Virus record (IMG/VR): IMGVR_UViG_2531839178_000011
Coordinates: 1-11,238 of that record
DNA length: 11,238 nucleotides
Strand: one strand, 5' to 3'
From: a virus
Lineage: Duplodnaviria > Heunggongvirae > Uroviricota > Caudoviricetes
In this document: positions 1 through 10,997 of the stretch, piece after piece
Layout of the letters: each line of letters starts with the position of its first letter
Position numbering within the stretch: the first letter of the stretch is position 1
Program-made: the position numbers and the translations under genes
Notes under the pieces: model-generated
The model's database searches: none
The model's input: the letters and a program-made list of their open reading frames with translations, nothing else
Told to the model about the DNA's origin: nothing

Positions 1-75
1 CCCCATCAGCGACGTCTTGTGAAAATTGTCCTGTCTGGCAACAATCGCGCCCATCTATATTGATGGACACGAACG

Positions 76-750
76 ATGAATTCCCAGGCAACAAAAGATA
101 TTCCCTGCTTCCGTTCTTATTTGCCTGATGCCCTGCGTTTAAGATTTGAAGATAAACTGACCATCCGGGCCATCGCTCAGCGTCTGGGTCTCAGTCATTC
201 CACAATACATACGCTTCTTCAGCGATTTCTTGCATCCGGTATCGCATGGCCATTGCCCGATTCAGTTTCATTCGCTCAACTTGACGCCATCCTTTATGCC
301 AACAGAAAGAAGGAATTAACAGAGCCTCAAATCAGAGAAGGCTCATGGCGAAAAGAACGGCGAACCAGCTATAGCCGTGAATTTAAGGTCCGTCTGGCTA
401 AGCAGGCGTTACAGCCTGGGGCTGTTGTTGCCCGGATCGCCAGAGAACACGATATCAATGATAACCTGCTGTTTAAATGGAAAAGCCAGTACGAGGACGG
501 CTTACTGAGCGATGATGACATACAGGAATGCATGCCTGTCCCGGTGGCACTGACTGATACGCCGGAGCCGACCAGACCAGTTACAAATCCCTTCTGGCGT
601 AACAAGCATGATGAGCGCCCTGAGGGGGCTCCCGGAAACGTCCCACGGTGCGAGCTGCATCTTAAATCAGGTGTGGTAAAACTGTTTGACCCTCTCACTC
701 CGGAACTGTTACGGGCGCTAATCCGCGAAATGAAAGGGGGTATCCGATGA
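76..750 (+). CDS. tnpA: IS66-family accessory protein (TnpA/orf1-like), 224 aa with two helix-turn-helix-like segments
   Basis: The C-terminal half (RRTSYSREFKVRLAKQ...VARIAREHDINDNLLFKWKSQY) is an insertion-sequence orfA-type helix-turn-helix. The stop overlaps the next start as ATGA (747-750). The protein is longer than I expect for IS66 orf1, so the true start may be downstream of 76. Confidence 0.75.
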   Translation: MNSQATKDIPCFRSYLPDALRLRFEDKLTIRAIAQRLGLSHSTIHTLLQRFLASGIAWPLPDSVSFAQLDAILYANRKKELTEPQIREGSWRKERRTSYSREFKVRLAKQALQPGAVVARIAREHDINDNLLFKWKSQYEDGLLSDDDIQECMPVPVALTDTPEPTRPVTNPFWRNKHDERPEGAPGNVPRCELHLKSGVVKLFDPLTPELLRALIREMKGGIR

Positions 751-1094
751 TAACGCTGCCGACCGGTACCAGAATCTGGATCATCGCTGGCATCACAGAT
801 ATGCGTTGTGGCTTCAATGGCCTGGCTTCGAAGGTGCAGAACACGCTGAAAGATGACCCGTTCTCCGGGCATATCTTCGTCTTCCGGGGCCGCAGTGGCA
901 AAATGGTGAAAATACTGTGGGCCGATCGTGACGGGTTATGCCTGTTCGCCAAACGCCTGGAACGGGGCCGCTTCGTCTGGCCGGTGACCCGGGAAGGGAA
1001 AGTGCACCTGACGCCAGCTCAGTTATCCATGCTACTGGAGGGGATCGCGTGGCAACATCCCAAACGGACAGAACGGCCTGGCATCCGGATATAA
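747..1094 (+). CDS. tnpB: IS66-family Orf2 (TnpB of IS66; unrelated to the IS200/IS605 TnpB nuclease)
   Basis: 115 aa, MITLPTGTRIWIIAGITDMRCGFNGLA...LWADRDGLCLFAKRLERGRFVWP, a typical IS66 orf2 length and sequence pattern. Translationally coupled to the upstream ORF by an ATGA overlap. Confidence 0.9.
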   Translation: MITLPTGTRIWIIAGITDMRCGFNGLASKVQNTLKDDPFSGHIFVFRGRSGKMVKILWADRDGLCLFAKRLERGRFVWPVTREGKVHLTPAQLSMLLEGIAWQHPKRTERPGIRI

Positions 1095-1113
1095 CCCGTG
1101 ATAAAACAAGGGA

Positions 1114-2715
1114 ATGAACAATGAACTCCCCGATGATATTGAGCTGCTTAAAGCCATGTTGCGTAAGCAACAGAGTCGGCTTCGACAGTATGCCTGTCAG
1201 GTCGCGGGCTATGAGCAGGAAATTGAACGGCTGAAAGCGCAACTCGACAGGTTGCGTCGTATGTTGTTCGGCCAGAGTTCAGAGAAAAAGCGTCATAAGC
1301 TTGAAAATCAGATCCGACAGGCAGAAAAACGACTGTCGGAACTGGAAAACCGGCTGAACACAGCCAGAAATCTTCTGGAAGATGCATCGTCAGTCACAGA
1401 TTCACCTGACACCAGTCCCCCGTCAGAAAACCCGATCGCCAGTAAGCCTGAATCCCCGGGACGAAAATCTTCACGAAAACCGCTGCCGGCAGAACTTCCC
1501 CGGGAGACACATCGCCTTCTGCCTGCTGAAACCAGTTGCCCGGCCTGTGGAGGTGTTCTGAAAGAAATGGGGGAAACAATCTCAGAGCAACTGGATATCA
1601 TTAATACCGCCTTTAAAGTTATCGAAACCATACGTCCCAAACTGGCCTGTAGCCGGTGTGATGTCATCGTTCAGGCACCACTTCCCCCTAAACCGATCGA
1701 ACGCGGTTATGCCAGTGCAGGGTTACTTGCACGGATCCTGGTCAGCAAATATATGGAACATATCCCTTTATATCGCCAGTCAGAAATATACGCGCGACAG
1801 GGCGTGGAGCTGAGCCGTAATACCATGGTGCGCTGGGTATCAGAAATGGCAGACAAACTCCGTCCTCTGTATATAGCGCTGAATGACTATGTTCTGGAGG
1901 CAGGAAAGGTGCACGCAGATGACACTCCGGTGAAAGTACTGGCCCCGGGGAACGGAAAGACGAAAACGGGTCGTCTGTGGGTATACGTCAGGGATGATCG
2001 TAATGCGGGTTCATCCCTGCCGGCAGCCGTCTGGTTCGCGTATTCGGCAGATCGCAAAGGAGAACATCCGCAGCTCCACCTGGCAAAGTATCAGGGCGTA
2101 CTGCAGGCTGATGCCTATGCAGGTTATAACGTACTGTACGAAACGGGCCGGGTGAAGGAAGCCGGGTGCCTGGCCCACGCCCGCCGAAAAATCCATGACG
2201 AGGATGTGCGCCGTCCGACAGAAATGACTCAGGAAGCGCTCAGACGGATAGCAGAGTTATACGACATAGAAGCGGAGATACGTGGCAGTCCGGCAGAGGA
2301 ACGGCTTGCAGTCAGAAAAGCCAGAAGCGTCCAGTTGATGCAGTCGTTGTACGACTGGATACAGTTGCAGAGGAAAACGCTGTCGAAACATGCGGAGATG
2401 GCGAAGGCGTTCGACTATATCCTGAATCACTGGAATGCGCTGAACGAGTTCTGTCGTGACGGCTGGGTGGAAATAGACAACAACATCGGTGAAAACGCGT
2501 TACGATCGGTGGCGGTTGGAAGAAAAAATTATCTCTTTTTCGGCTCAGACAAGGGAGGAGAAAGTGCGGCGATCATCTACAGTCTGCTGGTCACCTGCAA
2601 ACAGAACGAAGTGGAGCCGGAGGACTGGTTGCGCGAAGTGATCGAGAAGCTCAATGACTGGCCGTCGAACCAAGTGCATGAACTGCTGCCCTGGAACTTC
2701 TCGTCTGTAAAATAA
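1114..2715 (+). CDS. tnpC: IS66-family transposase (TnpC/orf3)
   Basis: 533 aa with an N-terminal coiled-coil/leucine-zipper region ([14 protein letters not shown]...[12 protein letters not shown]) and CxxC...CxxC zinc-finger-like motifs (CPACGG...CSRCD), followed by a large catalytic domain. It sits 20 bp after orf2 and is preceded by AAGGGAATGAACAATG. Confidence 0.92.
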
Positions 2716-2730
2716 TCCTTACGCTACGTA

Positions 2731-2747
2731 CTTCTCGGGGCGCTTAC
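2731..2747. repeat. Right terminal sequence of the IS66-family element (inverted-repeat end ...GCGCTTAC)
   Basis: CTTCTCGGGGCGCTTAC lies 16 bp after the tnpC stop. Its reverse complement begins GTAAGCGCCCCGAGAAG. The full extent of the repeat cannot be set without the left end. Confidence 0.5.
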
Positions 2748-2748
2748 T

Positions 2749-3054
2749 GAAAAAGCAGAAACCAAAGGCGCGAAAGCCGCAAAGAACAGCGCTGCACAGG
2801 AAAACCCGGCACCGCTGGCAGACGTTATTGTGGCTGACGGTCAGGCGAATGAACCACGTCCGGCTGAAGACCCGGTTGCTGTACAGGGTGACGCCCCTGT
2901 CCGGCTGAACGTCAGGGCCGTGTCTGAAAACGGGTTCTGGCGCTGTGGCCGTTTCTGGTCACATATCGGTGAGGATGTGGCGGTGAGCGCTGCGGTTGCC
3001 ACCCGCCTGATGGCAGAGCCGAATCTGATTGTCCGGGAAGCGGAGAAAGGCTGA
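2749..3054 (+). pseudogene. 3' fragment of a phage head-region gene, apparently 5'-truncated by the IS66-family insertion
   Basis: Frame 1 is open from the IS terminus to the TGA at 3052-3054 and reads ...AKAAKNSAAQENPAPLADVIVADGQANEPRPAEDPVAVQGDAPVRLNVRAVSENGFWRCGRFWSHIG...EAEKG. The first in-frame start is a GTG at 2830 with no convincing Shine-Dalgarno. Its position directly upstream of the gp36-like gene suggests a Mu gp35-type head-associated protein, but the family is not confidently recognised. Confidence 0.5.
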
Positions 3055-3176
3055 TGGGATACATCACGCAGGAAGACCTGTTACGCGCGGACGGCAGAGC
3101 CGAATCTGATTGTCCGGGAAGCGGAGAAAGGCTGATGGGATACATCACGCAGGAAGACCTGTTACGCGCGGACGGC
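3015..3176. repeat. Perfect tandem direct duplication, 2 x 81 bp (3015-3095 and 3096-3176)
   Basis: The two 81-bp units are identical base for base and are bounded by GGCA microhomology at 3012-3015, 3093-3096 and 3174-3177. Each unit carries the upstream gene's TGA, a GGAGAAAGG Shine-Dalgarno and the ATG plus first 14 codons of the next gene. Confidence 0.95.
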
Positions 3177-3572
3177 AATCTTGTCTGGAACATGGCGATT
3201 AACCGGGAAACCAACGGGCTGGATGAAGACAAAATCCGTCAGGCCATCAGTGATGCGGAAGCGGAAATTGATTCGTTTCTGTCCCGCCGCTACCAGCTGC
3301 CGCTGGGGGTGACGGAAATCCCGCGCCCGCTGCAACGCGTGGCGGTATCGCTGGCGTTTTACTGGTTATCAGAGCGTGACAATCAAATCACGGAGCTGAT
3401 CCAGAAACGCTACGACGACGCCATTAAAACCCTGCGTGAAATGGCGAACGGCACCCGTGACCTGGGCCTGCCGACGTATGCCACCCCGGCAGAAACCGAC
3501 AACGGGAAAATTATTGTGGTGGGTGCCAATGCCCGGCTGTTCACCCGTAACAACCTGAAAGGGGTGCTGTGA
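3054..3572 (+). CDS. Mu gp36-like phage protein (DUF1320-type), with a 27-aa N-terminal duplication if translated from the first ATG
   Basis: MGYITQEDLLRADG...AISDAEAEIDSFLSRRYQLPL...KRYDDAIKTLREMANGTRDLG matches the Mu gp36 family pattern as I recall it. The second in-frame ATG at 3135, with an identical Shine-Dalgarno, would give the native-length protein. The stop overlaps the next start as ATGA. Confidence 0.8.
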   Translation: MGYITQEDLLRADGRAESDCPGSGERLMGYITQEDLLRADGNLVWNMAINRETNGLDEDKIRQAISDAEAEIDSFLSRRYQLPLGVTEIPRPLQRVAVSLAFYWLSERDNQITELIQKRYDDAIKTLREMANGTRDLGLPTYATPAETDNGKIIVVGANARLFTRNNLKGVL

Positions 3573-4114
3573 TGGGGATTTCTGTACAGGTCAGCGGTGA
3601 CCAGCGTCTGGAGGATATCCGCCGCGCCGTTGAAAAGCTGGCAGAGGGTTCATTGCAGTCAGAGCTGCTGGAAAGCATCGGTGCGGTGGTGGAATCACAG
3701 ACCCGCCGCCGCATCATCGATGAGAAAACCAGTCCGGGTGGCGAACGCTGGCCGGACTGGTCTGACGGGTACAAAAAGACCCGCCACGGCAACCAGAGTC
3801 TGCTGCGCGGTGAAGGCCATCTGCTGGAGAGTATCCAGTACATCGTGGAAAACCGCGTGGTGCGTATCGGTTCACCGCTGGATTATGCCCGCATCATGAA
3901 TGACGGCTTTTCCGGCAGCGTGCCGGTCAGCGCCCACAAACGGCTTATCTCGCAGTGTTTCGGGCGGGCGCTGAAATATCCGGTCTGGCAGACCGTCGGC
4001 GCACATCACCGCATGATGAACATTCCGCAACGTGAATTTCTGGGGCTGTCTTCTGCCAGCCAGCAGGAGCTGCAACAGGTTATCAGTCATTTCTGGAAGG
4101 AGGTTCTGCCATGA
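3569..4114 (+). CDS. Phage virion morphogenesis / tail completion protein (Mu G / P2 S-like family)
   Basis: 181 aa; the segment ...GERWPDWSDGYKKTRHGNQSLLRGEGHLLESIQYIVENRVVRIGSPLDYARIMNDGF is characteristic of this family. ATGA overlaps at both ends. Confidence 0.8.
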   Translation: MMGISVQVSGDQRLEDIRRAVEKLAEGSLQSELLESIGAVVESQTRRRIIDEKTSPGGERWPDWSDGYKKTRHGNQSLLRGEGHLLESIQYIVENRVVRIGSPLDYARIMNDGFSGSVPVSAHKRLISQCFGRALKYPVWQTVGAHHRMMNIPQREFLGLSSASQQELQQVISHFWKEVLP

Positions 4115-4722
4115 CAGAACAACGCCCTGAACTGCGCACACCGGGGAGCACCGTTGCGGCCGCAGAGCACATTGTGGCCTGGCTGCAGACGGCCCTTCAG
4201 GGGGACACCCCTGACCGGGCTGACGTGGTGGAGCGTCACATCGGCCAGTTCAACAGCCCGGATGAAGTGAAACGCTATCTGTCCGGTCGCACCGGCTGTA
4301 TCCGTGTCGCGGCCCTGCGTGTCCGGGATATCAACCCGCGCGGCGGGCTGTCCGGTCTGGTCACCTGGGTGGCTTACATCATGGCGACGGATTCGTGGGG
4401 GTATTCCCGCGACGTGCGCTGTGAAGTGCTGGCCGGAAAGGTGATCAAACGCCTGCTGTCGTCGGATGCCACAGCGGGCATGGGGGCTGAACGCATGGCT
4501 GCTGATGTGCGGGCAGACAACATTTACTCCGTCAGCCTCGACGGGCTGGGTGTCACCATGTGGGCGGTGACGTGGGAGCAGGAATTCCGGCTGGATGAAG
4601 AGATTGATCTCGCCGCGCTCCCGGATTTCCTGCGCCTCGGGGCGACACTGCGCAGCGGCGAACACACTGAAATTAACGACGTGATCCATGTACGGGGTGA
4701 CGATGGAACAGAAACTGATTAA
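4111..4722 (+). CDS. Mu gp37-like phage protein (DUF1834-type)
   Basis: 203 aa, in the position and of the size of the gp37 homologue between gp36 and the sheath in Mu-like tail modules; ATGA-coupled start. The family call is from memory and position. Confidence 0.65.
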   Translation: MTEQRPELRTPGSTVAAAEHIVAWLQTALQGDTPDRADVVERHIGQFNSPDEVKRYLSGRTGCIRVAALRVRDINPRGGLSGLVTWVAYIMATDSWGYSRDVRCEVLAGKVIKRLLSSDATAGMGAERMAADVRADNIYSVSLDGLGVTMWAVTWEQEFRLDEEIDLAALPDFLRLGATLRSGEHTEINDVIHVRGDDGTETD

Positions 4723-4888
4723 GCCAGCGCGGGAAAACGTCCGTGTCCGTAAACCGGATGGCGCACATTTATCCCCGGAAGGGGAACGTCTCAACGTCTG
4801 CGCTTACTGGCTGCGCCGTGAAGCCGAGGGAGATGTGGAAATAACCACACTTCCGAAAAATAACAACAAAACCAGAGGGAAAAAATAA
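4688..4888 (+). CDS. Mu gp38-like small phage protein (DUF2635-type)
   Basis: Small ORF immediately before the sheath gene, with its stop overlapping the sheath start (TAATG). An alternative start at ATG 4703 (MEQKLIKPAREN...) has a better GGGGTGA Shine-Dalgarno-like sequence and may be the real start. Confidence 0.55.
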   Translation: MYGVTMEQKLIKPARENVRVRKPDGAHLSPEGERLNVCAYWLRREAEGDVEITTLPKNNNKTRGKK

Positions 4889-6361
4889 TGTCGCTGGGTT
4901 CCATTCCTGATGATATCCGCGTCCCGCTTGTCTGGATCGATATCGACAATTCACAGGCGCTGGAGGGTGCATCCGCGCAAAGCCGAAAAATTCTGGTCAT
5001 GGGCCATGCGGTATCGTCCGGCAGCGCAGACGCCCTGTCACTGACCCGTATCACCAGTGACAGCCAGGCAGACCAGCTTTATGGCAAAGGGTCGATGCTG
5101 GCTGAAATGCTCAAAATGCTGCGTCGTGCCAACACGTACACGGAAACCTGGGCGATGCCGGTTGCCGCTCCTGAAGGCGCTGCCGCAAAAGCCACGCTGA
5201 CCGTGCTGGGTACAGCGACCGAAGCCGGAACGGTGGCACTGCTGATTAACGGTGTGTCCGTTCAGGTGAGCGTGAGCGCCGGGGATACGAAGGAAAACAT
5301 TGCAAAAGCCATTGCTGATGCGGTGACGAAAAAGCCTGCCACGCAGGTGGCCGCTGCGGTGAAGGATGATGCCACGGATACCGTGGAGCTGACCGTGAAC
5401 TGGCACGGCGTCACCGGCAACGGTGCCGACGTTCGCCTGAACTACCACACCGGTGAAGCCTTCCCGGCAGGTGTGAAGGTGACCGCAACCGCGTTTACCG
5501 GCGGCACCGGGACACCGGAAATGGCAGACGCCGTTGCGGCCATCGGCCCGGAGTGGTTTACCGATATCATCGCCCCGTTCACCGACACGAAAAGCCTGAA
5601 CACCCTGCGTGATGAACTGCTGAACCGCTGGGGGCCGCTCAAAATGATGGAAGCGCAGCTGTGGACGGCGTTTTGTGGCACGCACGGGGAAACCGGCACG
5701 TTTGGTGAAACCCGCAATGACTGGCTGATTAGCTGCATCGGCACCAACCTGTCGCCGCATCCGGCGTGGATGTGGGCCGCGTCATACGGCGCAACGGCAG
5801 CGTATCACCTTGCCATTGACCCGGCGCGTCCGCTTCAGACGCTGGTCCTGACCGGCATTCTGCCGCCTGCGCGTAATGTTCGCTGGGATATGGGAACGTA
5901 ACCTGCTGCTGCATGACGGCATTGCCACGCACATGGTGGACGCCGGGGATAACGTCTGCATCGAGCGTGAAATCACCATGTACCGGGTTAACCAGTACGG
6001 TGATGCGGATGTGTCGTATCTTGATGTGCAGTCACCCGCCACGCTGGGCCGTATCCGTTACATCATTAAAAACCGTTTCTCGAACCGTTATCCGCGCCAC
6101 AAGCTGGCGGATGATGACGTGCTGGACTCGCTGGATGCGGGGCAGCCGGTGATGACGCCGAAGCTGTGCACTGCAGAGCTGCTGGATATCTGCCAGACCG
6201 AACTTCTCCCGGCGGGCCTTGTGGAAAACTTCAGCGATTACAGGGACACGCTTCAGGTGACACGCGACAGCAGCGATAAAAACCGCCTGAACTTTATCTG
6301 CCACCCGAATCTGGTGAACCAGTTGCGTGTGCTGGCAGGCCTGATTCAGTTCAAGCTTTAA
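4888..6361 (+). pseudogene. Phage contractile tail sheath protein (Mu L-like), reading frame broken once
   Basis: Frame 1 (4888-5901, 337 aa) and frame 2 (open from 5852 to 6361) together give about 490 aa, a full-length sheath. The switch must lie in 5852-5898. The start is preceded by AGAGGGAAAAAATA. This may be a real mutation or a sequence error. Confidence 0.8.
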
Positions 6362-6370
6362 GGGGGCCAC

Positions 6371-6727
6371 ATGGCAAAAATTCTTGGCATGGCGACCATT
6401 CGCGTGAATGGCCGCGAAATTAAAACCGAGGGGAAATCCACGCTGAATCCGGGCGGCTTCAGCCGCACCCAGCATATGGGCGGCGGCAAGGTCTGGGGTA
6501 TCTCCAGCAAGATGGCCTCGCCGTCCATCAAGGTAACCATTGCGGCGGCAGCGGATATGGACGTGATTGAAATCAGCAACTGGGAAGATGTCACGGTGAT
6601 GTTCTACGGCGACAACGGCCTGAACTACATGATGACGGGTTCCGCCACGGATAACCCGGCAGAGCTGGACGAGGATTCCGGCACCATCAGTGCCAACTTT
6701 ATCGGTGAAAAATGCGTGAAGGTGTGA
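6371..6727 (+). CDS. Phage tail tube protein (Mu M-like)
   Basis: 118 aa, directly downstream of the sheath gene, with a Shine-Dalgarno AAGGGGG before the ATG. Size and position match a contractile-tail tube protein. Confidence 0.8.
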   Translation: MAKILGMATIRVNGREIKTEGKSTLNPGGFSRTQHMGGGKVWGISSKMASPSIKVTIAAAADMDVIEISNWEDVTVMFYGDNGLNYMMTGSATDNPAELDEDSGTISANFIGEKCVKV

Positions 6728-6728
6728 C

Positions 6729-7124
6729 ATGGCCGCAATGGAATTTGAACTGAAACACGGGCTTCTGACCGGCAAAGGCACGGCAGATGAAACCCTGCAT
6801 AAAACCGTGAAACTGCGCGAACTGACCGCCAGTGATGTGATTGATGCGCAACTGGCCGCAGAACGCGTCGTCATGGGCGGGAACGGAAAGGCGGTGGCCT
6901 ACTGTTCTGAGGTGCTGATGGGACTGGAGATGATGCGCCGTCAGGTTGCGTCAATCGGTAATATCCCCGGCCCGCTGGACATGAAACAGCTGCGAATGCT
7001 CCACCCGGCAGACCTTGAGCTTATCAGCACGAAAGCGGCTGTGCTGGATGACATGCTTGAGGAGGTGGCAACGCGGGGGCGAACTGATGCCGCTGGCGTC
7101 GGCACTGATGAACCTGCTGGTTAA
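6729..7124 (+). CDS. Phage tail assembly chaperone (Mu gp41-like)
   Basis: 131 aa between the tube and tape measure genes, the conserved position of the tail assembly chaperone. An overlapping +1-frame extension is annotated separately. Confidence 0.65.
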   Translation: MAAMEFELKHGLLTGKGTADETLHKTVKLRELTASDVIDAQLAAERVVMGGNGKAVAYCSEVLMGLEMMRRQVASIGNIPGPLDMKQLRMLHPADLELISTKAAVLDDMLEEVATRGRTDAAGVGTDEPAG

Positions 7125-7224
7125 CCTGTCTTCGCGATTCAGCATTCAGTACCTGGAACAGCTGCCCCTGCGGCAGTTGTTCCGCCTGATAAAGCAACTG
7201 GAGAAACAGCATGGCAACAGGTAA
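6985..7224 (+). other. Out-of-frame (+1) extension ORF overlapping the chaperone 3' end; candidate translational frameshift product
   Basis: Frame 1 is open from 6985 to 7224 and overlaps the tape measure start at 7211. Its distal part (ELMPLASALMNLLVNLSSRFSIQYLEQLPLRQLFRLIKQLEKQ) looks like real protein, while the chaperone's frame-3 tail (RGRTDAAGVGTDEPAG) looks degenerate. The -1 frame is full of stops. Confidence 0.4.
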
Positions 7225-8953
7225 CCGTCTCAGCACGGAAATCATGATCAACCTTGCCGGGAACCTGACCGCCAAAGCCCGGCAGTACGGTGCAAACATG
7301 TCGCAGTTCGCCCGGAACAACCAGAAGGCCATGCGCCTGGTCAAAGCCACAACGGAGGCTGCCGGGCGCAGTCTGGATGCGCTTGGCAACCGCTACACGG
7401 CGATGATTGCCGGGTTCGGTGGTGGTATGACCCTTAAAGGCCTGACAGATTTTGATGCGCAAATCCGCCGTGCGGGTACAAATGCAAAACTGACCGATGA
7501 GCAGGTATCCCGTTTAAGAAAAAACATCCGGGAAACCGCCAGAATGTCAGACATTCGCCTCAGTGCCCAGGTCTTACTGGAAGGCCAGGATGCACTGTAT
7601 GGCCTGACCGGTAAGCCGGAATTTGTTGAAAAAAACATCCGCAATCAGGGGCTGGCCACGCAGGCATTCGGGACTGCGCCACAGGATGCCGCGGCACTGA
7701 TGGCACAGATGTCCGAAAAACAGATTGAAGCGCCTCAGGAGGTTGAAGGCATGTTCGACCGCTTCTACCACCAGTTTTCCATTGGTTCGGTTGGTGTGGA
7801 TCAACTGGCGCGTGTATCAGCAAAACTGTTTTCGATTTATACCGGTGGTGGCAAAGAGGCGATGGCCCAGTTGGGGGCACTTGAACAGATGCTGGCAAAA
7901 ACAACCGGCTCTGCGGATGAAGCGGTGACCGCGCTGAACAGTATCTGGAGTGAAGTCACCCGAAAAGACAATATCAAGTTTCTGAAAAGAAACGGGGTTG
8001 ATGTGCTTGATCCTGTCACAGGAAAACCCCGTCTGCCTTATGACGTAATCAGAGACGTTGTCAGGCGGGCAAAATTTAATGAGCAGAACTTGCAGGATGT
8101 TTTCGGGGATACTTCCATGCGTGGATTAAGGGCACTGCTCAGTGAAGACGCCCTTCAGCTAACAGAAAAAATGATTTACGCCCCGGTTGAATCCGGTGCC
8201 ATGAGAAAAGCTGCGGAGAAAAACGCCCGGAGTTTTCAGTCTGCGATGCAGTCCCTGAAGAATGAATATGAGGTTTTTGCTGAAAAAAATCTGGCAAAAC
8301 CCGTTCAGGACCTGGCGGATGCCATCAACAGCGTGGACCAGAACTGGTTGCAGGTCGGTAAATATATGGCAATTGCGCTGGGTGGCATTATCGCCGTACG
8401 TAAGACGTACAAGCTCGGTAAAACCATCCACGACATCATGAATCCCAAAGGGAAAGGCAAAGGGATACCCGGCAGCGTGGCAGACGGCAACCCCGGCTTT
8501 GCCATCGGGCTGTCACCGGATTATCAGCCGGTATCTGACAGCCTGCAAAAGAACATTGACGACTTCCGCCAAGTGGTTGTGCTGGGAGCCCTGCTGGGAC
8601 AGGCCAGTGCCGTGGCCTCGATGACGTTCGATACCCGTGATGCGGCGTTATCTGCCGGTGACACGCTGGCGGCTGAACTGCATGAGCAGGCGGTGGCGGC
8701 GGTGGAAAACAACCAGCGGACATTGTGGCGAACGCTGCGCGATTTACGGCAGGCCGTGATTACGGATGCCCGCGAGCGTGCCGCCCGTCTGCCGGAAACC
8801 CGGCAGGTGACGCTGACCACAACCACCTCTGCCGCATTGCTGGCATGGCGCGAGCATGGTGACACACGCCGACGGGATGAAATCGTGCAGCGTAACCGCC
8901 TGCGTCATCCGTCATTCATCCTGCCGACGCAACCTGTGGAGATCACCGACTGA
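7211..8953 (+). CDS. Phage tail tape measure protein
   Basis: 580 aa, the largest ORF, immediately after the chaperone/frameshift region. It is helical and Ala/Gln/Leu-rich with a hydrophobic segment (YMAIALGGIIAVRKTYKLG). Shine-Dalgarno GGAGAAACA before the ATG; its stop overlaps the next start (TGATG). Confidence 0.8.
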   Translation: MATGNRLSTEIMINLAGNLTAKARQYGANMSQFARNNQKAMRLVKATTEAAGRSLDALGNRYTAMIAGFGGGMTLKGLTDFDAQIRRAGTNAKLTDEQVSRLRKNIRETARMSDIRLSAQVLLEGQDALYGLTGKPEFVEKNIRNQGLATQAFGTAPQDAAALMAQMSEKQIEAPQEVEGMFDRFYHQFSIGSVGVDQLARVSAKLFSIYTGGGKEAMAQLGALEQMLAKTTGSADEAVTALNSIWSEVTRKDNIKFLKRNGVDVLDPVTGKPRLPYDVIRDVVRRAKFNEQNLQDVFGDTSMRGLRALLSEDALQLTEKMIYAPVESGAMRKAAEKNARSFQSAMQSLKNEYEVFAEKNLAKPVQDLADAINSVDQNWLQVGKYMAIALGGIIAVRKTYKLGKTIHDIMNPKGKGKGIPGSVADGNPGFAIGLSPDYQPVSDSLQKNIDDFRQVVVLGALLGQASAVASMTFDTRDAALSAGDTLAAELHEQAVAAVENNQRTLWRTLRDLRQAVITDARERAARLPETRQVTLTTTTSAALLAWREHGDTRRRDEIVQRNRLRHPSFILPTQPVEITD

Positions 8954-10055
8954 TGGAATCCGTGATTCTTACCGTTGACGGCAAACTGTGGGAAGGCTGG
9001 ACGGAAATGTCCGTCAGCCGTTCCCTGAAGGCGATTGCCGGTGAGTTTGAACTCAGTGTGACAACCCGCTGGTCAGCGGCGGCACCGCGCGTGATTCGTG
9101 AGGGGCAACCCTGCACGGTCAGGCTGGGCGCGGATACCGTGCTGACGGGGTATATCGATGATTTTATTCCCGGCTATGAGGCTGAAAACGTGGAGATTCG
9201 CGTCATGGGGCGCGATAAAACCGGCGACCTGGTGGACTGCTCTGTGGTGCATTCGTCCGGGAAATGGAAAGGCGTGCGGCTTGAACAGGTGGCGGCTGAT
9301 GTCTGCCGCCCGTTCGGGATAACCGTCATCACGGAAACCCCGACCGGGGAGGCATTTGCGTCTGTCGTTCTGGAACAGGGTGAAACGGGCTTTGAACTGC
9401 TCGACCGGCTGGCAAAACAGCGCGGCGTTCTGCTGACGTCTGACGGCGCGGGTAACCTGATTATCACCCGCGCCTCTTCCGTTCGCGCGGGCGTGTCACT
9501 GGTGCTGGGAAAAATATCCTCGCCGCCCGTGGGCGCTTCAGCTGGCGGGAGCGTAACAGCCAGTACATCATCAAGGGCACCACCAGTGCCCGTGGCAAAC
9601 TGTGGGACAGCCAGCCTGCCCCGATGGTGGGCGGTCGCCAGTACATCACCGAAGCCCCGGAAATTAACCGTTACCGCCCGCGCATTCTGGTCAATGAAGA
9701 CAGCCTGACCGTGGGCGGGGCCAGCATTCGCGGGGAATGGTACAAAGCCCGGATGCTGGGAGAGTCCCGCACGACGGAAATCACGGTGGCAGGCTGGCGC
9801 GAACAGGGCGACAGCGGCCCGCTGTGGCAGACCAACCGCCTTGTCGATATCGACGACAGCATTCAGAACCTGAAAACCACCTGGCTGATATCCGGGGTGA
9901 CATGGACGGATGGCGCACAGGGGAGGATGACGGTTCTGGCGCTGGTTCCGCCTGAATCACTGGACATGCCGGAAATGAAAGCGAAGACGAAAAAACAAAG
10001 GCGGTGGCCACATGGGATTAAACGCAATTGCCCGCCGCCTGCGACTGATGGTTGA
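8953..10055 (+). pseudogene. Phage baseplate hub / tail protein D (P2 gpD / Mu P-like), reading frame broken at an A5 run
   Basis: Frame 1 (8953 to about 9510) and frame 3 (open from 9456 to 10055) join into one protein of about 367 aa (...ITRASSVRAGVSLVLGK/NILAARGRFSWRERNSQYIIKG...). The junction is the A5 run at 9510-9514; one more A restores the frame. This may be a real mutation or a homopolymer sequence error. Confidence 0.8.
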
Positions 10056-10548
10056 CCGCGCTGTTGTCCGCCTGGTGTCTGACGGTCTGGCACGGCAGAA
10101 CCTGCAAATTCAGACGCTGGCAGATGCCACCGATGACGACGTGGAACGCTTCCAGAACTACGGGTTTACGTCCGTTCCGCCGGAAGGTTCTGAAGCCATT
10201 GTGATGGCCGTTGGCGGACGGCGTGACGGGCTGGTTGCCATCGCGGTGGAAGACAAGCGATGTCGCCCGAAAGGACTGTCCCCCGGCGATGTCAGGGTGT
10301 ATCACCGGGACGGCAAATCACACATCACCCTGAAGGAAAACGGCGTCATTGAAATCACAGGAGAACAATTAGACTTTTCAGGGAAAACGGTAAATCTCAC
10401 TGCCGACGAACTGCTGAATATTATCGGTAAACAAATGAAATTCGTCGGTCCCTGTGAATTCACTGAAGATGTCAGAATCAAGGGTAAATCATTCAGCGAA
10501 CACATTCATAAGGACGGCGACAATGAGAATACATCACCGCCCGTATGA
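10012..10548 (+). CDS. Phage baseplate assembly protein V / spike-like protein (Mu gp45-like)
   Basis: 178 aa, preceded by AAAGGCGG. Position after the hub gene and size fit the V/spike family. It overlaps the hub ORF's 3' end by 44 nt. Confidence 0.75.
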   Translation: MGLNAIARRLRLMVDRAVVRLVSDGLARQNLQIQTLADATDDDVERFQNYGFTSVPPEGSEAIVMAVGGRRDGLVAIAVEDKRCRPKGLSPGDVRVYHRDGKSHITLKENGVIEITGEQLDFSGKTVNLTADELLNIIGKQMKFVGPCEFTEDVRIKGKSFSEHIHKDGDNENTSPPV

Positions 10549-10997
10549 CGACAGAAATCCGCTGGAATAACATGCTCTCACGGGGTGACATCACCGTCAC
10601 CCATAACGGCCTCTCACGGGATGAGGGGCTGGTCACTCAGGTTCTTATCTGCCTTTTCACCGATGCCCGCGCTGATGACGATGATGTCATTCCTGACGGC
10701 TCCGGCGACCCGCGCGGCTGGCCGGGCGACACGTACAGCGATTTTTCGTGGGGTTCCCGCCTGTGGCTGCTTGAGCGTGAAAAGCTGACGGAAGATGTCC
10801 GCCTGCGCGTGGAAGATTACGCGCGGCTGTCCATGCAGCCGCTTCTGCGTGCCGGTTACGCCCGTAACGCCACCGTCACGGCCAGCATCATCATTCCTGA
10901 CCGTATTGCCTTTCTGGTGGTGTTAACCCGCCCGGACAAAACCACACTCAGAATCGAAATCACCCGTCGATGGGAGGCCACCATTAATGCCGTATGA
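10545..10997 (+). CDS. Mu gp46-like baseplate protein (GP46 / gp25-W-like)
   Basis: 150 aa, ATGA-coupled to the upstream gene, in the position of gp46 in Mu-like baseplate modules. Confidence 0.7.
   Translation: MTTEIRWNNMLSRGDITVTHNGLSRDEGLVTQVLICLFTDARADDDDVIPDGSGDPRGWPGDTYSDFSWGSRLWLLEREKLTEDVRLRVEDYARLSMQPLLRAGYARNATVTASIIIPDRIAFLVVLTRPDKTTLRIEITRRWEATINAV

Follow-up and report, generated by a model that had tools for sequence, protein, structure and literature searches.

A Mu-like prophage tail and baseplate region in Shigella boydii 965-58 that probably decayed in steps

Introduction

Contig AKNA01000011.1 (GCA_000268145.1) of Shigella boydii 965-58 carries a run of phage tail genes with several lesions, and the question that it raises is whether these lesions record the decay of a prophage or the errors of a draft assembly. 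The whole contig, 11,238 nucleotides in length, is the window analyzed here. A first-pass annotation made from the sequence alone had allowed either a recently inactivated Mu-like prophage or error-prone assembly. Drawing support from other assemblies rather than from reads, we conclude, with a probability of roughly 0.87, that the region corresponds to the half of a Mu-like myovirus prophage that encodes tail and baseplate, an old, non-viable remnant that appears to have undergone stepwise neutral decay.

Results

The window matches an intact E. coli prophage in gene content and order, with 98-99.5% identity, and its genes include Pfam families of the Mu type. They follow the Mu order of a gp36-like gene, virion morphogenesis, sheath, tube, gp41 chaperone, tape measure, N, P (hub), gp45, gp46 and gp47 (J), with PF07030, PF05069, PF04984/PF17482, PF10618, PF23746, PF05954/GpP-like, PF06890 and PF07409 arranged accordingly (Table 1). 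The right end typical of Mu, where com and mom come after the tail-fibre genes, lies beyond the window: sister loci L007-L010, like the E. coli locus L001, encode Zn_ribbon_Com and Mom downstream.

Table 1. Features of the 11,238-nt window. Lengths described as conserved are relative to the E. coli locus L001.
Feature	Position	Strand	Remarks
ISSfl3-family IS66 element	1-2747	+	Pfam HTH_Tnp_1, TnpB_IS66, DDE_Tnp_IS66 (precomputed)
IS66 tnpA	76-750	+	ORF of 224 aa
IS66 tnpB	747-1094	+	ORF of 115 aa
IS66 tnpC	1114-2715	+	ORF of 533 aa
5'-truncated small ORF	2748-3054	+	compared with L001 5996-6307; 103 aa in intact relatives
Perfect 81-bp tandem duplication	3012-3177	+	period 81, 2.0 copies, 100% matches (Tandem Repeats Finder)
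Mu gp36-like (DUF1320, 'gp436') gene	3054-3572	+	PF07030
Virion morphogenesis (Phage_tail_S) gene	3572-4114	+	intact; length conserved
203-aa hypothetical gene	4111-4722	+	intact; length conserved
DUF2635 gene	4703-4888	+	intact; length conserved
Tail sheath pseudogene	4888-6361	+	2-bp deletion; 491-aa protein split
Tail tube gene	6371-6727	+	intact; PF10618
Mu gp41-like tail assembly chaperone gene	6729-7124	+	intact; PF23746
Tape-measure::N chimera, 580 aa	7211-8953	+	1376-bp deletion, in frame
Baseplate hub (Mu P/gp44-like) pseudogene	8953-10021	+	two 1-nt deletions in A runs
gp45/V-like spike gene	10012-10548	+	intact; PF06890, PF07409 for the region; length conserved
gp46 gene	10545-10997	+	intact; length conserved
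Baseplate J/gp47-like gene start	to 11238	+	cut by contig end

The left part of the window is occupied by an IS66-family element, recognizable from its tnpA-tnpB-tnpC triplet with a DDE_Tnp_IS66 transposase and 99.8-99.9% identical to copies on Shigella and E. coli plasmids that are annotated as 'IS66-like element ISSfl3 family'. It has terminal inverted repeats of the GTAAGCG type. The right repeat (...ACTTCTCGGGGCGCTTAC), with CGCTTAC at 2741-2747, stops at 2747 and prophage DNA runs from 2748; the left repeat lacks its first 7 nt because the contig begins there, the complete end being GTAAGCGCCCC in sister locus L004, that is, GTAAGCG|CCCCATCAGC. As had been noted at first pass, the boundary at 2747|2748 cuts an ORF. 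Since the corresponding sequence in the intact E. coli relative is ATGAG|TGAAAAAG, the small ORF is missing only its first 5 nt; together with ATGAG its ribosome-binding site is gone, and a 74-aa ORF with a GTG start (2830-3054) is left.

What lies to the left of the element can be read from L004, which is part of the 5.1-Mb contig PSSP01000001.1. There the IS is preceded by an IS4 element and then by uppS-cdsA-rseP-bamA, and no 8-bp target-site duplication surrounds it, the flanks being CAGTCACT on the left and TGAAAAAG on the right. Because these flanks are unlike, the IS marks the boundary of a deletion or rearrangement, and because it adjoins housekeeping genes without a target duplication, the head, lysis and transposition genes are missing at that locus. 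The window itself is devoid of transposase A/B, repressor and transposable-phage ends, which a functional Mu-like prophage needs. Strain 965-58, whose left IS flank lies outside the contig, has probably lost the head and early genes too, as its sister genomes suggest, although the missing half of the prophage may instead have been relocated by an IS-mediated inversion.

These observations bear on the proposal that the prophage was inactivated recently and is otherwise complete, with the IS as a simple insertion and the rest of the phage just to its left. Such a history would account for genes that are intact and translationally coupled between the lesions and that share 98-99.5% identity with an E. 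coli prophage which seems complete, and it could draw on the position of the left flank beyond the contig end. It is nonetheless very unlikely, given that all sisters reaching the site (L004-L014) have the same IS/prophage junction, that in PSSP01000001.1 the IS has the surroundings just described, that the first hub frameshift (below) is common to S. boydii and S. dysenteriae assemblies, and that the fibre gene is also IS-interrupted in sisters. With the junction and this frameshift present in every sister locus compared, the word "recently" in the first-pass annotation finds no support.

Downstream of the boundary, Tandem Repeats Finder confirmed the zero-divergence duplication that had been reported. 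Its 81-bp unit takes in the stop of the ORF upstream and, from the gp36-like gene, the ribosome-binding site, the ATG and the opening 14 codons; it is bounded by GGCA microhomology (GA[T/C]GGCA) and is joined at TACGCGCGGACGGCAGAGCCGAATCT, within 3082-3107. Read from its duplicated start at 3054, the gp36-like product is 172 aa long; from the native ATG at 3135 it is 145 aa, and this shorter form is present in sisters. As the duplication is in frame (27 codons) and leaves the gene with an entire ribosome-binding site and its ATG at 3135, it is not clearly inactivating. In a diagnostic k-mer matrix, the junction was found in none of the sister loci compared and was seen only in the window. A partial 167-aa cluster member (P0014) considered as a second carrier proved to be merely upstream read-through on a 517-bp contig.

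Public-run assemblies speak to this duplication indirectly. Both Logan contigs that bear the tape-measure::N fusion begin at window position 3148, 30 nt before the first base past the repeat, and the six other Logan contigs fetched, which lack the fusion, are continuous from the IS end. Logan assemblies use k=31, and a de Bruijn graph of that k would branch at 3148 if the 30-mer at 3148-3177 had two continuations. We lean towards regarding the duplication as a real event. In other Logan samples, contigs that start at the IS end do so at 2719-2721, against an expected 2718, which is 1-3 nt off the same rule.

Both frame breaks reported at first pass, in the sheath and hub genes, were found where they had been placed. 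In the sheath gene, CC is lost from ATGCCGGAAC between 5892 and 5893, leaving ORFs at 4888-5901 (337 aa) and 5876-6361 (161 aa). The same allele is present in L003-L006, L008 and L014, and the gene is intact in L007, L009-L013 and L015; exact matches to the sheath fragments occur on 8 contigs (10 by contig look-up), among them the 5.1-Mb contig and Logan assemblies of public runs. In the hub gene, GGGAAAAAAT has become GGGAAAAAT, a change from A6 to A5 at 9510-9514 that the k-mer matrix places in 11/11 sister loci covering the site, and the resulting 251-aa fragment is found on 95 contigs, indexed in 104 collection blocks, from S. boydii and S. dysenteriae.

The hub gene does not have a single break, as had been supposed, because a second 1-nt loss (A7 to A6) lies at 9990-9995. 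Nor is every other gene intact: a 1376-bp deletion with its junction at 8468-8473 has taken out the tape-measure gene's 3' third, along with codons 1-265 of the gene for DNA circularization (Mu N-like), and fuses tape-measure residues 1-421 to the C-terminal ~160 residues of the Mu N-like protein. The breakpoints share CCCGGC microhomology. A Pfam search with the 580-aa chimera gave no hit, so PF07157 (DNA_circ_N) has been lost. An identical chimera is encoded in Logan run ERR200314 and on one further Logan contig. Also overlooked at first pass, along with the deletion and the second hub frameshift, was a 12-bp in-frame indel in the tape-measure gene relative to L001, at 8337|8338; the -12 allele recurs in other assemblies, and we do not count it as a lesion, the tape-measure lengths among relatives including 545, 597, 614 and 618 aa.

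Could the frame breaks, duplication and deletion all be errors of the 2012 draft assembly, over a true locus that is intact? Two of the three frame breaks are indeed 1-nt losses in A runs, the classic pattern of homopolymer error, the 172-aa duplicated protein and the 143-aa C-terminal hub fragment occur on no other contig, and joining of overlapping contig ends can yield a perfect tandem repeat. We nevertheless consider this extremely unlikely. The sheath, hub A5 and tape-measure::N alleles recur in independent assemblies, including public-run and multi-megabase contigs, and concatenation of contig ends was rejected as the main reading of the duplication because GGCA microhomology bounds the unit and two independent Illumina assemblies have a contig break that matches it. 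Of the five large lesions, four can no longer be put down to assembly error. The first-pass annotation had named, as its own refutation, resequencing that removes both frame breaks and the duplication; independent assemblies retain both frame breaks. The A6 run at 9990-9995 stays private to the window, with A7 in 11/11 sister loci covering the site, and could therefore be a homopolymer error; a miscall and a private slippage mutation seem about equally probable.

The persistence of the A5 allele raises the thought of a retained, partly functional tail-like device in which -1 ribosomal slippage on G_GGA_AAA would bypass the first hub frameshift, a reading whose probability is close to negligible: the A5 run does sit in an in-register X_XXY_YYZ heptamer (9507-9513) where a -1 slip would restore the wild-type LGKNIL, the allele is maintained in >100 assemblies, and many sisters have intact sheath, tube, tape-measure and N genes, but intact relatives encode a single 356-aa hub ORF with A6, so the A5 break is derived, further disabling lesions lie in the J, gp48, fibre and sheath genes of sisters, and at near-zero divergence the retention of A5 needs no selection. 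Programmed frameshifting at the sheath and hub breaks was set aside on similar grounds, intact relatives having single ORFs for both (hub 356-357 aa, sheath 491 aa). Were slippage to occur, sisters with intact sheath, tape-measure and N genes might still make a little tail-like structure.

Across the 14 loci of the k-mer matrix, the lesions are nested, which upholds the decaying-prophage branch of the earlier reading. Loci with the 2-bp sheath deletion differ from the window by 0-2 substitutions and those with an intact sheath by 7-9, and the tape-measure::N fusion is limited to the window, ERR200314 and the one other Logan contig. The ERR200314 contig corresponds to window positions 3148-10953 (7807 nt) with no mismatch and one 1-nt gap, in the A7/A6 run. 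ERR200314 could be the same strain resequenced, in which case it validates the sequence and does not show inheritance. Sisters have private lesions of their own: a truncated J gene with loss of gp48, a TGG to TAG nonsense mutation, a sheath frameshift distinct from that of the window, and a fibre gene interrupted by an IS.

Stepwise decay would then have run as follows. In an ancestor of the S. boydii / S. dysenteriae lineage, a copy of ISSfl3 would have become the left boundary, with everything upstream of the first post-capsid ORF lost, and the A6 to A5 change in the hub gene would belong to the same earliest stage. Loss of CC from the sheath gene in a subclade would have come next. Later, in the 965-58 sublineage, 1376 bp would have been deleted between two CCCGGC hexamers, fusing tape measure and N, and 81 bp would then have been duplicated between two GGCA tetramers. 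The A7 to A6 change near the 3' end of the hub gene, if genuine, would be last and confined to the deposited contig.

Discussion

All the small events lie in sequence contexts typical of replication slippage or of illegitimate recombination mediated by microhomology. The locus has neither head, lysis nor transposition genes, and its sheath, tape measure, N and hub are broken; in such a state there would be no selection against more damage. In practical terms, the sheath, tape-measure/N and hub ORFs of this contig should be annotated as cryptic-prophage pseudogenes or, for the fusion, as a chimera, and not as functional tail proteins, and the draft contig can be trusted at every base save possibly one. 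The nested lesions are useful lineage markers and provide a small, clean case of stepwise neutral prophage decay in an IS-rich, genome-reducing pathogen; as a process, the stepwise decay of prophage remnants is already well documented, and the importance of this case beyond annotation is small.

Among intact counterparts, the closest are a Mu-like prophage in E. coli FDAARGOS_943 (NZ_CP065615.1, 4493883-4515684) and related prophages in E. coli and Shigella genomes, whose gene content and gene order from the small ORF through to J agree with those of the window, at 97.9-99.5% identity. Compared with the FDAARGOS_943 prophage, all phage sequence to the left of the small ORF is missing from the window, which has in addition the 81-bp duplication, the 2-bp sheath deletion, the 1376-bp tape-measure::N deletion and the two hub frameshifts. 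Five sister remnants (PSSP01000001.1, CP027027.1, UYIS01000022.1, AMJQ01000014.1 and AFFZ01000017.1, the last from S. dysenteriae 155-74) share the identical ISSfl3 junction and the hub A5 allele and, across about 8.2 kb, are separated from the window by 0-9 substitutions. They are without the duplication junction, the tape-measure::N deletion and A6 at 9990-9995, and several have an intact sheath gene or private lesions.

In type, the remnant resembles SfMu of Shigella flexneri, a Mu-like transposable myovirus with remnants and cryptic copies in many strains; a cryptic Mu-like prophage of S. boydii is mentioned in the same work (PMC4406740). A megablast search of 50,697 phage records with the tail module as query returned no sequenced phage close at the nucleotide level, the best match being a Klebsiella phage with 72% identity over 17% of the query, and by that search the remnant would be a Mu-like lineage other than SfMu. 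Every Shigella reference genome contains at least 199 pseudogenes (PMC7373316), and as in the IS-driven degradation described there, an IS bounds the remnant, an IS interrupts it and pseudogenes accumulate. ISSfl3, of the IS66 family, is not among the five dominant Shigella IS types of that study, and unlike the degradation that it describes, the lesions here are mostly small slippage events rather than IS insertions.

Identity of the locus and its left boundary

An exact protein look-up followed by a contig look-up matched the window base for base, over its full 11,238 nt, to AKNA01000011.1 from Shigella boydii 965-58 (GCA_000268145.1). The sequence from 2748 to the end of the window runs colinear with the half of a Mu-like prophage that encodes tail and baseplate, its Pfam families follow the Mu order (Phage_Mu_Gp36, Phage_tail_S, DUF2635, sheath, tube, Gp41_Mu, GpP/hub, Gp45 and GP46), and the top complete-genome match for this part is E. 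coli FDAARGOS_943 (97.9-99.5% identity), whose element spans terminase through com/mom and appears complete within the stretch fetched.

The IS66-family element on the left is 99.8-99.9% identical to copies from Shigella and E. coli plasmids annotated as 'IS66-like element ISSfl3 family'. In sister locus L004, part of the 5.1-Mb contig PSSP01000001.1, the left inverted repeat reads GTAAGCG followed by CCCCATCAGC, and the window begins 7 nt inside this repeat; the last base of the right inverted repeat is 2747. At the boundary, TGAAAAAGCAG follows ACCATGAG in the intact relative and follows the IS in the window, so that all the interrupted 103-aa ORF has lost is ATGAG together with the signals upstream of it. 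To the left of the same IS copy, PSSP01000001.1 carries an IS4 element and uppS, cdsA, rseP and bamA, and genes for capsid, lysis, replication and transposition are missing from this locus in that contig. Because the 8 bp flanking the IS there are unequal (CAGTCACT on one side and TGAAAAAG on the other), the IS marks a deletion or rearrangement boundary and not a simple insertion. The first-pass annotation had considered a recently inactivated prophage; decay is borne out, but the reading fails on both recency and completeness, given the flanks in PSSP01000001.1, the missing genes and the unequal IS flanks.

The tnpA, tnpB and tnpC ORFs are all intact in the window's ISSfl3 copy, and sister copies are decaying: L004 (at 5390-5397) and L009 carry 8 extra bases in tnpA, and a deletion of ~44 bp in tnpC, equal to window 1462-1505, occurs in L007, L009 and L011. 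In S. flexneri CP100042.1 (1-1500) an IS66-family element in opposite orientation abuts a 5'-truncated tape-measure gene of a related Mu-like prophage, a second, independent IS66 hit in such a tail module.

Lesions in the tail module

The IS boundary, the duplication and the sheath and hub frame breaks, all listed in the first-pass annotation, are true features of the sequence and lie where that annotation placed them, although that list was incomplete and missed three further differences. Its statement that every other gene is intact does not hold: base-level comparison with the intact relative revealed a 1376-bp deletion, with CCCGGC at both breakpoints, that leaves residues 1-421 of the tape-measure protein joined to the final ~160 of the DNA-circularization (Mu N-like) protein; since the two genes occupy different frames, this fusion is in frame. 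The resulting chimera gave zero Pfam hits, and the DNA_circ_N domain is therefore gone. Relatives differ in the length of the tape-measure protein (545, 597, 614 and 618 aa), and the in-frame loss of 12 bp between CCAGAAC repeats is therefore treated as a polymorphism.

In the sheath gene ATGCCGGAAC has become ATGGGAAC. The hub gene, for which a single break had been reported, has two: the known change from GGGAAAAAAT to GGGAAAAAT (A6 to A5) and a 1-nt deletion (A7 to A6) that rewrites the final 8 residues and extends the ORF to 10055. Re-adding one A to each run yields a 356-aa hub that shares ~99% identity with its E. coli counterpart.

The hub A5 allele places an in-register G_GGA_AAA heptamer (X_XXY_YYZ) at 9507-9513 (CTG GGA AAA ATA). 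With a -1 slip at this site the hub would regain its wild-type residues LGKNIL, but functional bypass by this route is highly improbable given so much other damage. Programmed frameshifting as a family trait is excluded, as intact relatives encode single ORFs.

Features of the window and their occurrence among sister loci and Logan contigs (L003-L015)
Feature	Coordinates	Detail	Occurrence	Basis
IS66-family element	1-2747	tnpA 76-750, tnpB 747-1094, tnpC 1114-2715		Pfam families
ISSfl3/prophage junction			each sister locus reaching the site	k-mer matrix
81-bp duplication	3012-3177	period 81, 2.0 copies, 100% matches	junction in window only; indirect support from two Logan contigs	Tandem Repeats Finder; k-mer matrix
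Sheath -2	between 5892 and 5893	loss of CC	L003-L006, L008, L014; 491-aa sheath intact in L007, L009-L013, L015	
Tape-measure/N chimera	7211-8953	580-aa ORF, product of the 1376-bp deletion		
12-bp tape-measure allele	between 8337 and 8338	in-frame loss	11 of 11 sister loci covering the site	k-mer matrix
Tape-measure/N deletion	junction 8468-8473	1376 bp	window, Logan contig ERR200314_382 and one more Logan contig	
Hub A5	9510-9514	A6 to A5	11 of 11 sister loci covering the site	k-mer matrix
Hub A7 to A6	9990-9995	1-nt deletion	window only; A7 in 11 of 11 sister loci covering the site	

Nested distribution among independent assemblies

The comparison with sister strains that had been proposed was carried out with a diagnostic k-mer matrix (14 loci) and pairwise BLAST on independent assemblies, as distinct from reads, of this remnant, some of them built by Logan from public sequencing runs. 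The lesion pattern is strictly nested. The 251-aa hub fragment is present in S. boydii and S. dysenteriae alike, on 95 contigs (104 indexed blocks), and substitutions relative to the window number 0-2 in broken-sheath loci and 7-9 in intact-sheath loci. Wholesale assembly error, the other reading first offered, is refuted by these shared lesions. Its one possible exception is a single base that had gone unlisted, the A7 to A6 change: the ERR200314 contig matches window 3148-10953 (7807 nt) with zero mismatches and one gap, at this run. Being private to the deposited contig, the change is about as likely to be a homopolymer miscall as strain-private slippage.

The duplication is milder than had been implied. 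Its 81 bp (27 codons) are in frame and double the ribosome-binding site and ATG, so that the native 145-aa gp36-like ORF still begins at 3135. Among the loci of the k-mer matrix its junction is found in the window only, which leaves an end-to-end joining artefact to be weighed. In the ancestral sequence, however, GGCA (GATGGCA...GACGGCA) bounds the duplicated unit exactly 81 nt apart, a coincidence under such joining and the signature expected of slipped-strand duplication. Moreover, the ERR200314 contig begins at 3148, and the first base past the repeat, 3178, lies 30 nt further on. Logan assemblies use k=31, and this break fits the duplication because a break there in such a de Bruijn graph requires two different continuations of the 30-mer 3148-3177, as the duplication would supply. 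Look-up of the 140-aa partial product returned two Logan contigs, and Logan contigs with the fusion also number two; the six others fetched, none with the fusion, run from the IS end through the duplication region. These patterns indicate that the duplication is very probably a true event, inherited together with the tape-measure/N deletion, though this is not proven.

Probable stepwise decay of the remnant

These comparisons establish the positions, sizes, sequence contexts and nesting of the lesions. From the nesting we infer that the IS boundary and hub A5 came first and the sheath deletion next; the 81-bp duplication and the tape-measure/N deletion would have followed, with A7 to A6 as the most recent change. 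The likely causes would be slippage during replication at short runs (A6, A7, CC) and, at CCCGGC, GGCA and CCAGAAC, deletion and duplication mediated by microhomology, and the lesions were presumably neutral.

To the right of the window, sisters carry J, gp48, tail-fibre genes and com/mom, beyond which lies either IS4 or a gene for type VI secretion. J is truncated to 324 aa and gp48 lost in L007 and L009-L011, both genes are intact in L004 and L008, and one tail-fibre gene is broken by a DDE_Tnp_1 IS in L004 and L007-L011. A TGG to TAG nonsense change at the equivalent of window 4181, in a 203-aa hypothetical gene (called product 165 aa), is an independent private lesion of the Logan assemblies L005 and L014; a different sheath frameshift (P0021) and an extra hub change (P0056) were also found. 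Such separate damage is the mark of a remnant free of selection, with each branch decaying on its own. This fits known Shigella biology, as each Shigella reference genome holds at least 199 pseudogenes (PMC7373316) and cryptic Mu-like prophages, one of them in S. boydii, have already been noted (PMC4406740); stepwise prophage-remnant decay of this kind is an ordinary, known phenomenon.

All fetched Logan contigs that extend this far (L003, L005 and L012-L015) stop within gp46, at the equivalent of window 10953, and the deposited contig ends at 11238, within the J gene. These ends suggest a repeat here or a branching of the graph, such as a second, related Mu-like segment elsewhere in the same genomes might cause. 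On E. coli chromosome CP065611.1, two distant copies of a related tail module (~4.66 Mb and ~0.51 Mb) have intact hub, sheath and N genes, and several transposed copies are the expectation for an active Mu-like phage. E. coli strain 06-00048 holds the related prophage tail module (~95% identity) in two records, the 136-kb NZ_CP012497.1 and the 5.5-Mb chromosome NZ_CP015229.1.
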